Virus record (IMG/VR): IMGVR_UViG_2529293141_000015
Span: 1 to 64,000 of that record
Length of the DNA: 64,000 nt
Direction: 5' to 3' (one strand)
Origin: a virus
Lineage: Duplodnaviria > Heunggongvirae > Uroviricota > Caudoviricetes
Made by a program: the position numbers. Positions 54,801-64,000 of the stretch are shown here, piece by piece. The number at the start of each line of letters is the position of its first letter. The stretch's first letter is position 1.

Positions 54801-57800
54801 GCTAAATCGGATGCACAGGCGGCGTTTACGAAACAGCAGGGGCGAGCCTCTCTTGTTGGCGCTGGTCTGGGTGCGGCAGGTGCATATGCGATGCATAAGG
54901 CTGGCGGTAGCGGAGGAAGTGGCGGTGCTAAAACACCTGGCACTGGCGCTAATGCCATTCAGCATCAGGCTCAGAACTGGAGACTGTGATTATGGAGTAC
55001 GGTAAATACGAAACACTTGCGAGATACGGTTATACCGGAGCAGCCCGCCCTCAGGGGGACTGGCAGACATCCGCAGCGCTGACCCGCCAGCAATACGACG
55101 ACTGGCGCACCAGATATTTACCCCGTGTAGCAAGGCTGGCTGACCTTGGGGAGAACAACAGTCTGATGAATCCACAGCTTGCACGGGTGGGAGGCCTTGC
55201 CACTTCCAGTCTCCGTACAGCGCAGATGGCGCAGGATAACCAGATGGCGAGATACGGGGTAAGCCGCCCGGATAATCCCGACAGTAATACGCTGGGGTTA
55301 CGTAATGCCCTGGCAATAGCAGGTGCGAAAAATGGTATCCGTGAAGCCGAACAGGATCGCCAGATGAATATTCTGACGGGGGCTTCTGCACCGGCAAGAC
55401 AGAAACTGAGTGTTGGCGGACAACTGGTGGCAGCGTAAGGGGGCAATATGGGATACGGTTTACTGGATATTGCAAATCAGTCGCGGCGTGAGGCATTACA
55501 GGGAATAAGTGACGCAGACAGACGACGTACAGAGATTGAGGCATCAAATAAACAACTGGCTGCTCAACAGAAAGCTCAGAAAAAACAGAATATCGGTACG
55601 GGCATTGGTACGGGGGCCACTATCGGGGCGACTGTTGGTTCAGCAGTACCGGTAGTGGGGACAGCCGTCGGCGCTGTTGCTGGTGCAGTAATTGGCGGCA
55701 TTGCAGGCGCTTTGTTTTAAGGAGTGGTGAATGAGCGGATTTGCACAGGGGTTACTTGCCGGATTCAGCACTGTTGACCAGGCAATGACCCGTCGTAAGG
55801 AGCTTGGTTTGCGAGAAGCACAGCTTGCTCAGCAACAGAAAAATAACGAGCGCGATTTTGAATTTGCGCAGTCTCAGTTTGAACATAATAAAGACGTTGA
55901 TCAGCGGAACTTTGATTACAGAGCCAAAGTTGATGACCGCAATTACACACTGCAGGAAAGGGAGTTTAACGCCAACCAGAATTACCGGAATGCGTCGCTG
56001 GGGATGGAACAGCAACGACTCCAGTTGCAGAAATACAACCAGCGACGGCTTGAGTATAACGATATGCTGGCGCGCGATCAGCCTGTGATGGCGGCGCTGG
56101 GAAAAGCGATTGATGCGGGTGACCATGATGCGGCTTCTCATCTGTTCGGTAAATTATCGGACGCCAATCCGCTTAAGATGATGTCAACGGTAGGCTATGC
56201 TGCGAAAGCGGGTCAGGCCGTGAACAACCTGCAGAAAATCTTTGATGATAAGCCGGACAGGGCGATTGCTTCGCTGAATACCCCGGAAAATCTCGATGTG
56301 CTTTCCGGCGTGTTTGCCCCGGAACTACAACAGCGTATTGGCATGCCTGATTCAACCGGGGAAAAAACGATAAAAGAGGCCAGGATTGGCAGTATCGTAC
56401 CGGCGCAGCAGGAAGGGTACGTACTTATTGGCCTTGATCTCACATACAGCGATGGCTCCACCGCGCATAAACCTGTAACAGAATACGGCAGTGCGCACCC
56501 TGATGATCAAACCGTGCTGGCGATACCCGTTGATAAGGCTATCGCTCAGGTCAGGGATCGCAGCAAATTTGCAGAGATATCGAAAAATTATGGTTATTTT
56601 ATGCCGAAGCAGCAGGGACTTTCTCTGAAAGAGCTTCAGAAGGGGGCCAGCAACGTAGCGGCGGACGCGATCAAGAATGGCGGTAATGCTCAGGCTGCGG
56701 TGGATGAATATTATGCTGCGACTGGTTCACAACCGCATCAACAGAAAATTCAGCAACAAAAACTTCAGCAACAGGTTATCAACTGGGCGGGAGATGATCC
56801 TGATAAGCTGTCATTTGCCAGAAATGTAGCGGCCCGTCAGCCTGAAATGCTGGAACCTCAGAATCAGAAATTGCTGGAGAACGGGTATGCGAATTTTCTC
56901 CGTATTCAAAAGGCCAGGGGGGAACAGGCCAGAGATGAAAGTGCTTCATCTGCATCTCAGTTTATCCGTGGACTGAAACAGAATTACGCCCAGTAATTCA
57001 CGATATTCCATTAATACCATTTCCTGATGCCCGGCCATTGTGCCGGGTTTTTTTATGGAGTCTGTATGGCCTATTCAGAGGAACAGCGTCCTGAGGCGCA
57101 ACTCGGTAACCAGAATCGTAACAGCCTGAACATTCAGCAACCCGGCGAAACTGACAGCTATGAAGCATTTTTCTCAGATCCGAATCGCTGGAAGGATAAC
57201 AGTACGTCGTTCAGCCTGGGCGATGTATTGCCAACAATGGGTAAAGGTTTCGCCCAGTCCGTCCGGGGAACAGGGGAAATGGCCCGTGGACTCGGTGATG
57301 CGATGATTCAGAGCCCGGTAAAAACAGGGGCGCGTATTTTAAATGAGTTCAGCCGTATGGGGCTGCCGGGTGTCGCAACTGTGCAGGATATTTTTGCCGG
57401 TGGCAGCAGGGGGGCTGATGAGGTCATCGATACCCTGCCTGATGGCAAAAACGCGGTTACTGATACTGTCGGTAAAGGTCTGAAGGCAACCGGTAAGGCT
57501 GTCAGTGATGGTGCTGAAGCCACTGATGAATGGCTGACCGGTAAGATGTCGCCGGGTGCAGTTCGTGCGCTGAATACGCCGATGACCGAAGGCTATGATG
57601 ATTCTGCGGTCTGGGTGGCGAAGGGTGTAAACCTGATTGGTGCGCTTGTACCTGATATGGTTGTTGGCGGTGTGGCTAAAAAGGTGGGTGATGTCACACT
57701 GCGAAAAATGCTGACCGCCGGGCTGGAGAAAAAATACATCGCGGCAGGGATGCAGCCGGAAAGAGCCACGGCACTGGCAGCAGAAGCTGTCGATAAAAAA

Positions 57801-60800
57801 ATGCCGGATTTATTCCAGGCGGGCCTGATCACCCATTCCACAGCCAGTGCACAGGGGCAGAGTGCAATGGCGGCAGCAGATGCTGTTCTTAATGCGGATT
57901 ACTCTGAGCTGGCGCAGTCACCGAAATTTCAGCAGACGTTTTTGTCCATTGACGCCGACCCGCAGCACGCACAGCTTACTGATCGCCAGAAAATGGATCT
58001 GGCAAAAGAGCGTGTTGCCGATGAGGTGCGCGCGCAGCTGGCAACCGATCCTGAATTGCTGGCTGTGAATGCCATGGCGGCAAAACTGGGTGACGCACAA
58101 CTGTTTAATCTGGTGACACGAGGCACAGCGAAGACCGTTAAAAGCGGCATTGTCAGAAATGCCACTGCACAGGGGGCGATTAATGCGGCGCAGGGCGGCT
58201 ATTCACGCTATCAGGAAAACACGGCATTGCGTGAGACCGCCGGAATGGATGTGTCACCGTGGGAGGGCGTGGCTGACGCAACGATCGAAGGTGCAGCCTT
58301 TGGTGCTGCGATGGGGGCTCCATCCGGTGCGGTTGCCGGATATCGTGGCAGACGTCAGGCCGCAGAAGAAACCGCCATGCGTGATGCTGAAACCGTGCAG
58401 CAGGACGACGCAGCCCCGCAACCAGAATCTGTTGATCCGGTGGCGCAGCAGCGTGAATCCATGCAGGGCATGAATCGCGAGCAGCTTCTGGAGCAGTATG
58501 CTGATGCGGATATGGCAACAGAGGGTGACGCATCCGCAGCTCATCGCCGGGAAGCTGCCAGCCAGTTGTTGAATGAACTGGACGAACAGGCGAAGCGACA
58601 GGCTGTGATGAATGAGCTGAAGGCGAAGCCGCGTTCTGAACTGCTTGAGGAATACCGCAGACTCAGCCAGAAAGAGGGGCGCACCGAGACTGAAGAACAA
58701 CAGTTTCAGGCAATACGAGAAGTCATTCGCCCACAACAGGAAGTGACGCCGGAAGCACAGTCACAGCCTGAAAATGCGGAGGATGGTAACGGGAGCATTT
58801 ACCCGACGGTGCGGTTCCGGGACCCGAATGAAGTCCGCATTGAAATTAACGGGAATGGTGCGTCCAGACCAGCGGAACGCATTGAAAAGGTGCGCCCGGA
58901 CAACCGTTATTTCACGGATGAGAAAAGCGCCATGGGGAGTGATGTTTTCCGTAATGCCGCCGCTACCGGCCTGAAACCGTCCGTAGTGAAGAAAGGCGAG
59001 AATCAGTATGCCGTTGAAATGGATAATCCTGCGTTCTCTGAAGATGTGGCAACGGAAACCATTAACACCCTGGCTGACGGAGAGCGTATTGCTGATGCTG
59101 ACCCGATGGAGCAGCCCGCGTTCATGCGTGACCCACGATTCCGTGGTTTCACGGGGGATGATACGGAGGTACAGGCCCGCCTTGCCCGTGGCAACGTGCC
59201 GACGGCAGAGGAGCTTGTACGTTCACAGATGGCTGAAGGTGATGCCGGTCCGACAGCACAGGAGTTAACTGAGCGTCCACGCCTGCCCGCTCCCGGCGAT
59301 ATTCATCCCGGACAGGGATATCCGTTACCGGGAGAGGTGGCGCGTACGCCGGATGAGAATCAGGCAGGACGTGGTGGTCGTTTTACCACAACCGGTGAGG
59401 TTAAGGGCCAGAGTTTCCAGAAAGGACAAGCTCCGGCACCGGAAAACGCCGCTGGTCGCCAGGGGGAAACACTCGAGGGTGAAATGGTTCGTCGTGGTCT
59501 GCCGTCACCGGATGCGCAGAACGCGACAGCACCGGTACGTGAAGGGCTACCGGCTCCTGACATTGCGCGTAATGTTCGTATGCCTCAGCCTGAATCACTT
59601 CCCCGCACTGTACGGGACTCACTGCCTGAGCTTGCACAGCAGGCAGAAGTACGCCGACAGGCCGGAGGAAATCGTGACATCCCGCAGCCTGAGACAATCG
59701 CACCTGAATCTGAAACAACTGTCTCTACTGACAGGGAAGCTACCGCACGCGGAGGTGAAGTCAGGGGCAAAAAAATTGAAGACTTTGGCGAGGAGATTAA
59801 GGGCGCGGCAAAACACCGTTATGCACAGCTTGCCGAAACACTGGGTAAAACGCTGGAAGACAGGGATTATGCCACGCAGCCGCTGAGCAAACTGTTCCCG
59901 AAACCGGACTACGCAAAACTGGCGAACGAAGGTGCCGATGCTGACACCCTGGCAATGATAGCGCTGTATCGTAGCGATATTCCGGCGAAGACGAAACACA
60001 ATACGGCAGGCTGGGGGGAGAGCATAAAAAAAGTACGACACAGTGTATCGGAAATGCTGAACGGAACGGTCAGCGCGAAACGCCTCGCAGAATGGATGGA
60101 AGGCAGAATGCCCTCCCGTTACGCGGACACCTGGCAACTGTTACGCACTCTGCCACCCTCACAGATGGACAGAGCTTCTGCTTATCGGGTGGTATCGGGT
60201 GTGTATCAGGCGGCAGGAGGGAAGCGTTACGATCCGCCACAGAAACTTTATTCACTGCGCAATAAGGACAATAAGGGGAGTAACCTCTTTTTCTCGGAAA
60301 GCAGGGATGAATTACTGGCAAAGGCGAAAGTCTGGTTTGCAGAGCAGGAGGAAAAATCACAGGCGAAAGGTGATGAAAAAACAGCACCGTCACCGGATGA
60401 CAAAATCCGCTTTGACGTTTACCGGAATACCCGCAGTGGCGATATTTTTATCGCTTACGGTAAAAACAAAATGCGGGTGAGAGGTGGCTTTAAGTCAGCC
60501 AGTGATGCGCGTAAGTACATTGATTCACATCGTGATGAGCTTGTTCGTCATGTGAAGGAGATGCGGGAGATTTCGCGTGAGGAGCAGCGCAACGCCACCA
60601 ACCGCGACCGTACCGGACCAGAACGCCGCAAGGGGAATGTTTCACCGGAGCAGTTCAGTGATGCGTTTGGTTTCCGTGGTGTGCAGTTTGGTAATTATGT
60701 GGAAGGTCCGCGTCGTCAGGCTGATTTGAACCGGGCTTATGACTCGCTGCATGACCTTGCGGAAGTACTGAATGTACCGACAAAAGCGCTTTCCCTGAAC

Positions 60801-63800: not shown

Positions 63801-64000
63801 GCGGTGATGAATCTGAAGGCGGAGCAGGGAAGGAGCGACGGCAAACTGAAAGGGCTGGATAACTTATCCGCACTGGCTGTGGTGAAAGACAGCCGTTCTG
63901 CTATGTCAGCCGTATACGCCAGTCTGCGTGGCAAAAACCTCACGGGCAAAGGTGCGCAGTGGCAGAAGGTGTGGAAAGAGTTTGTTGAGGACGGAGGTAA

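Follow-up and report, generated by a model that had tools for sequence, protein, structure and literature searches.

The DNA analysed here is a 64,000-nucleotide stretch of a tailed-phage genome (Caudoviricetes; positions 1 to 64,000 of the IMG/VR record IMGVR_UViG_2529293141_000015, referred to below as the window), and the subject of this work is a giant open reading frame (ORF) that starts at position 57066 on the plus strand and runs past the window end. As the initial annotation had stated, the frame was free of stop codons from the ATG at 57066 to position 64000, corresponding to the first 2311 of approximately 2793 codons, and the nearest in-frame stop upstream of this ATG was located at 57012. 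The probability of such a frame arising by chance was calculated by us as about 1e-48 ((61/64)^2311), and chance was therefore discarded as its origin. A GGAG sequence was present at 57057-57060, 5 nt ahead of the ATG, and was preceded by a terminator-like hairpin (57029-57048; seven pairs, six of them GC) followed by TTTTTTT, so that hairpin, T-run and GGAG together occupy 57029-57060 of the plus strand, directly upstream of the start codon. In the GenBank annotation of phage phi24B the giant ORF starts 13 codons further upstream, at an ATG in the hairpin (equivalent to 57027) that lacks a ribosome-binding site; the ATG at 57066, with its GGAG, is the more plausible start.

The in-window protein displayed 98.2% amino acid identity with gp68 of Shigella phage 75/02 (YP_009226900, 2793 aa), colinear over all 2311 residues, and 96.2% identity over 2311 residues with the giant protein of phi24B, colinear except for a one-column gap; two HExxH motifs, HEWFH and HEIIH, were kept in both orthologues. 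Since the frame was colinear with both proteins, no frameshift is present in the window, and neither a frameshift nor a stop codon, either of which would have contradicted the initial annotation, was found. The match to phrog_616 reached 5181 bits and covered profile positions 1-2311 of 2793 (the full-length family). At the nucleotide level, the 6.9-kb stretch matched 186 phage records with 90-99% identity, all of them Shiga toxin (Stx)-converting, Shigella or Escherichia short-tailed lambdoid phages, among which VT2-Sakai (Sp5) showed 97.5% identity to the giant ORF; the homologous coding sequence of phage 75/02 Stx (Sepvirinae; NC_029120) comprises 8382 nt and is annotated as 'LPD5 domain-containing protein'. 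The giant gene was preceded by genes for products of 218, 150, 90 and 421 aa, as in phi24B and 75/02, the window ORFs at 54333-56996 agreeing with theirs in order and size, and, behind the 421-aa gene, it closed the late region as it does there. Judged by sequence and position, the ORF is the known giant late gene of the Sepvirinae (933W/Sp5/phi24B-type), found in Sp5 as ORF80 (ECs1242), in phi24B as gp47 (vb_24B_48) and in 75/02 as gp68 (PHROG 616), with 96-98% protein identity, the same position and the same motifs. The differences from these orthologues consisted of point differences only, along with the last ~480 residues, which the window does not include. The first 20 kb of the window matched prophages inserted at wrbA, including stx-less records named 'PPwrbA', and the window was therefore assigned to a Sepvirinae prophage.

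Domains were called with Pfam on the in-window protein, and on the 75/02 orthologue for LPD38. The N-terminal ~1050 residues (57066-60215; this and all the following segments on the plus strand) contained no recognised domain, yielding only sub-threshold Gly-zipper Pfam matches together with phrog_26030, 20690 and 37568; residues ~170-440 were Gly/Ala-rich and weakly hydrophobic, residues ~440-1000 were polar, of low hydrophobicity and rich in E, Q and P, and a search for transmembrane-grade hydrophobic segments returned none, the one weak segment being located at residues 181-200. Downstream, the order in the window was LPD5 (aa 1051-1200; 60216-60665), a first zincin-like metallopeptidase domain containing HEWFH (aa ~1201-1440; 60666-61385), the C-terminal part of which is the Pfam domain LPD1 (aa 1361-1440; 61146-61385), a second zincin-like metallopeptidase domain containing HEIIH, for which no covering Pfam model was found (aa ~1472-1620; 61479-61925), MuF-C (aa 1750-1837; 62313-62576; PF18819, E 2.6e-17, 63.3 bits against a gathering cut-off of 27.6) and the start of a conserved C-terminal region common to other giant phage proteins (aa ~1879 onward; 62700-64000; phrog_14770 and phrog_10691). 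LPD38 was detected at aa 2476-2681 of the 75/02 orthologue, beyond the window. MuF-C corresponds to PBECR, a barnase/EndoU-type RNase-like domain and not a peptidase (Iyer 2017, PMC5512222). With several LPD and effector domains, and encoded among late and virion genes, the giant product is a polyvalent protein, as the initial annotation had suggested from its place in the late operon; the domain parsing proposed there recovered LPD5, LPD1, LPD38, MuF-C and two zincins, and no DUF955.

The unit formed by LPD5, zincin 1 with LPD1, and zincin 2 recurred as a supermodule in about 22 retrieved giant proteins. In a Salmonella enterica variant (P0016 fragment) a module of ~270 aa with a phosphoribosyltransferase-like motif (ILDDTLTQGGTL) was inserted between LPD1 and zincin 2, at the aa 1446/1470 junction, and in two E. 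coli variants (P0007 and P0021) the MuF-C module was replaced by a divergent version; these three variants show cassette-like swapping in the giant-protein family. Neither of the HExxH motifs fell inside any Pfam peptidase model, and PDB sequence searches, for which the entire protein and the profiles of both domains served as queries, gave no meaningful match. PADLOC returned no defence or anti-defence match. A weak match of aa 1893-2066 to the 'DarB-like' antirestriction family phrog_10089 aligned to the non-enzymatic far-C-terminal part of that profile, and was not taken as evidence of anti-restriction.

The HEWFH motif comprises residues 1284-1288 (60915-60929), and the H and E content of the protein predicts 0.03 HExxH motifs by chance. 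The key residues of this first domain were H1263 (60852-60854), D1291 (60936-60938) and, in a Glu helix, E1375 and E1382 (61188-61211). Among 26 relatives from giant proteins, H1263, H1284, E1285, W1286, H1288 and D1291 were invariant, and the two glutamates, both located in Pfam LPD1, were kept in 24/27 (E1375) and 26/27 (E1382) sequences. A His before the active-site helix, here in strand 2, plus an Asp three residues past HExxH is the signature of a widespread phage-type clade of polyvalent-protein metallopeptidases (Iyer et al. 2017, PMC5512222), and domain 1 displays it. In a confident AlphaFold2 model the domain adopted the zincin alpha/beta fold, with HExxH in helix 238-255 and the Glu residues in helix 329-347 (model numbering). 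Conservation, fold model and the structural matches described below thus bore out the earlier suggestion of a zincin-type peptidase module at this position. The NCBIfam model CLCA_X matched aa 1182-1437 with a score under its cut-off, and membership of that family is not claimed.

The HEIIH motif comprises residues 1551-1555 (61716-61730; context KLRHEIIHHAMEH), and the predicted third zinc ligand of this second domain is E1607 (61884-61886), with 51 residues between HExxH and the Glu. A word-indexed homologue search yielded no more than fragments of nearly identical proteins from E. coli and Salmonella, which lacked the depth needed for modelling. HMMER was instead run exhaustively with aa 1446-1745 as query; at E<=0.001 it recovered 421 relatives, nearly all of which were segments inside proteins 1.5-6 thousand residues long, some with two copies. 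In the alignment with 163 copies, H1551 was kept in 160/164 sequences, E1552 in 161/164, H1555 in 164/164 and E1607 in 162/164 (the other two with Asp), and A1536, N1538, W1589, Y1596 and E1614 were also conserved; identity among the more than 160 copies was just 17-40%. An AlphaFold model built from a 32-sequence alignment (pLDDT >87 for residues 1-146) showed the topology helix-strand-helix-strand-strand followed by the HExxH helix (71-90) and, three helices later, the Glu helix (130-143; model numbering), which is the zincin alpha/beta fold. Non-peptidase folds would have undermined the proposal; the AlphaFold models place both motifs in zincin folds.

The initial annotation had likened the context of HEIIH to the ImmA/IrrE (DUF955, Peptidase_M78) repressor-cleaving metallopeptidases. 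Domain 2 has in common with them the zincin fold, the HExxH motif and the Glu ligand, whereas the profile match, structural rank, ligand spacing and context are different. Peptidase_M78 (PF06114) gave no match at E<=10 for aa 1446-1745 and was not among the families listed (25 of 42) for 32 diverse domain 2 members, whose recurrent weak Pfam matches were to other zincin families only (M76, M10 and MATCAP); a PDB profile search with domain 2 likewise returned no IrrE or ImmA chain. Against the domain 2 model, IrrE ranked 30th, behind 29 PDB chains led by lethal-factor-type domains; in the BFVD collection of viral models the best matches were 'large polyvalent protein associated domain', structural, internal-virion and vRNAP proteins, and those named IrrE were confined to E 0.03-0.12. 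H1560, the extra His of the look-alike 'HHAMEH', was not conserved among the copies. No helix-turn-helix (HTH) repressor partner of the ImmR/DdrO type was found adjacent or fused, since domain 2 is an internal part of a giant structural-operon protein, flanked by LPD1 and MuF-C and with virion genes as neighbours. The position and zincin nature of HEIIH were thus upheld and its ImmA/IrrE reading was not: domain 2 is a real zincin of polyvalent-protein clades and not a member of the ImmA/IrrE family.

An hhalign comparison of the two domains gave a weak alignment (probability 11%) limited to the strand-plus-HExxH region, indicating that they belong to distinct clades and are not the result of a recent duplication. 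The best structural matches of both were anthrax lethal factor, MtfA and Pro-Pro endopeptidases, and with these groups (ATLF/M34, Pro-Pro endopeptidases and M90) they have in common the gluzincin arrangement, in which a Glu helix lies downstream of HExxH; at 7-15% sequence identity, this is a fold-level likeness and not family membership. Apart from the Sepvirinae orthologues, close known systems include the phage-type polyvalent proteins with zincin-like domains described in 2017 by Iyer, Burroughs, Anand, de Souza and Aravind, for instance the C-terminal region of the N4 virion RNA polymerase and P1 DdrB, which are also giant, multidomain, virion-associated and encoded by late genes, and which also carry LPD domains, at least one HExxH metallopeptidase and a MuF-C/PBECR module. 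Unlike them, the giant protein lacks modules of the RNA polymerase, methylase, helicase, ART and lysozyme types, and its long N-terminal half is devoid of recognised domains; Sp5 moreover cannot do without it, whereas an accessory status is assumed for many polyvalent effectors.

The essentiality was established by Mondal et al. (2016), who deleted ORF80 of Sp5 (ECs1242, 2793 aa) and obtained particles with DNA-filled, normal-looking heads that had lost the binding of a tail-fibre antibody, and who placed the gene under tail assembly, with function unknown (PMC5155283). In phi24B, gp47 was found in purified virions and had no density in the cryo-electron microscopy map, and the authors of that preprint, who noted LPD5, LPD1, LPD38 and MuF-C, propose that it is an encapsidated ejection protein (bioRxiv 10.64898/2026.04.10.717836). 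According to its supplement, gp47 had the second highest spectral count (10962, with 17998 for the capsid protein), the detected peptides included an N-proximal one (residues 19-41) and the tryptic peptides GNGPGALAHEWFHSLDNYFGR and HEIIHHAMEHVVTPAEYQTIIK, spanning both HExxH motifs, and the counts ran from the top gel slice to slices of 50-80-kDa proteins. The supplement peptides were pooled over gel slices, and cleavage sites could not be mapped. Of the earlier claim that the protein is packaged in the virion and injected with the DNA, the packaging is thus backed by the abundance of the 96%-identical phi24B protein in virions and its absence from the map, while injection stands as a proposal.

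Taken as a whole, these data probably describe a giant polyvalent protein of Sepvirinae Stx-type prophages that acts as an ejection protein and carries two self-processing zincin domains. In orthologues at least 96% identical it has been shown that the protein is made late, is essential for infectious particles and is abundant in the virion with no ordered density. The protein would lie inside the capsid and the tail lumen and would leave through the tail with or before the DNA. Its supermodule of LPD5, zincin 1 (with LPD1) and zincin 2 would provide two catalytically competent-looking metallopeptidases of gluzincin type, belonging to polyvalent-specific clades, which most likely would cut the polyprotein itself, either in the capsid or after ejection, as Iyer et al. 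(2017, PMC5512222) proposed for the peptidases of polyvalent proteins. Such self-cutting would free an N-terminal conduit or structural part, the RNase-like MuF-C module and a C-terminal part with LPD38. The spread of gp47 over the gel, from the top to ~50 kDa, is compatible with such fragments.

Several points weigh against self-processing by an ejected protein. The gel spread could equally reflect degradation, the sample having been stored for 6 months, and N4 packages its vRNAP, whose peptidase domain is comparable, without processing it (Iyer 2017, PMC5512222). Cleavage, zinc binding and protease activity are, for the giant protein and its close relatives, predictions from sequence and models, and the last ~480 residues of the protein lie outside the window. 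Furthermore, a purely internal protein does not fully account for the loss of tail-fibre labelling in Sp5, which was read as a tail-assembly defect, and completion or stabilisation of the tail may also depend on the giant protein.

This last result is the basis of an alternative that we regard as unlikely, in which the giant protein is mainly a tail-assembly or structural factor, as interpreted for Sp5, and its HExxH domains are vestigial. The delta-ORF80 particles, with DNA-filled heads and no tail-fibre labelling, and a gene that is essential and not accessory fit such a function, but the near-invariance of the catalytic triad over more than 160 copies of just 17-40% identity would be unexpected for a vestigial site, the giant protein was unseen in the resolved phi24B tail, and a Walker A motif, sought because of a published COG1483/AAA+ remark, was not found in the protein. 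Being required structurally does not preclude a catalytic role.

Other podovirus ejection proteins carry cell-wall hydrolases, such as T7 gp16. By analogy, the zincin domains could digest peptidoglycan while the ejected protein builds a channel across the periplasm, a role suggested in the phi24B preprint (bioRxiv 10.64898/2026.04.10.717836), to which we assign a low probability. That preprint calls MuF-C a metallopeptidase and bases the peptidoglycan-degradation idea on it, leaving the zincin domains unannotated, whereas MuF-C is RNase-like according to Iyer 2017, and the peptidase domains of the giant protein are the two zincins. In the Pfam scans, including that of the 75/02 orthologue, no family of lysozymes, transglycosylases or recognised cell-wall peptidases was detected. 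Peptidoglycan digestion was not favoured because both domains resemble protein-cutting zincins (lethal factor, MtfA and Pro-Pro endopeptidases), and the peptidases among the listed structural matches were almost all protein- or peptide-cleaving zincins.

It is quite improbable, in our judgement, that one or both of the zincin domains, once ejected, attack proteins of the host or of a resident prophage in trans, for example a defence protein or an immunity repressor, with a function additional to self-cutting or different from it. Phages of the phi24B type are known to superinfect lysogens, and trans-acting zincins, if real, could contribute to this ability. Cleavage of a repressor by the zincin domains is unlikely, and its most specific form, in which the HEIIH domain is an ImmA/IrrE-like (M78) protease delivered with the DNA to cleave the repressor of a resident prophage or some other HTH regulator, is very improbable given the shortage of M78 likeness in profile, structural rank, ligand spacing and conserved His, the lack of a neighbouring HTH partner gene, and the confinement of nearly all relatives to the interior of giant virion or polyvalent proteins.

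Short-tailed Stx-converting phages spread Shiga toxin genes, and of their essential genes the giant one is the largest and the least understood. It was already known, zincin polyvalent proteins having been described in 2017, the essentiality of the Sp5 gene in 2016 and the phi24B virion protein in 2026, and what is added here is a modest refinement of the annotation, namely two bona fide zincin-type peptidase domains, and not a new kind of system. Zincin 1 was hidden between Pfam LPD5 and LPD1, the latter being its Glu-helix half, and zincin 2 was located in a Pfam-less stretch. For testing the probable self-processing of the ejection protein, E1285, E1552 and E1607 are precise targets of mutation.

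Three candidate virion-protein genes were located upstream of the giant ORF on the plus strand, at 55731-56996, 54986-55438 and 54333-54989, the counterparts of phi24B gp48 (421 aa), gp50 and gp51, respectively. All three phi24B products were found in virions by mass spectrometry (bioRxiv 10.64898/2026.04.10.717836), in agreement with the internal-virion type that had been attributed to the small proteins preceding the giant ORF, and ORF79 of Sp5, the counterpart of the 421-aa gene, is essential (PMC5155283). Neighbouring genes matched PHROG families labelled internal virion protein, tail fiber protein and virion structural protein, and the three upstream genes may encode additional proteins of the internal or ejection type. 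For the ORF of 90 aa at 55448-55720, Gly-zipper and bacteriocin-like matches were obtained, all sub-threshold.

ARAGORN detected no tRNA genes in the whole window (1-64000), whereas phi24B has three tRNAs upstream of stx; the window prophage may lack the usual tRNA/stx module, although the stx genes themselves were not searched for. An ORF of 400 aa in the late region (52547-53749, plus strand), flanked by the tail genes and the internal-protein cluster, carried YadA_head and YadA_anchor domains, and looks like a moron encoding a trimeric-autotransporter (Eib-like) adhesin.

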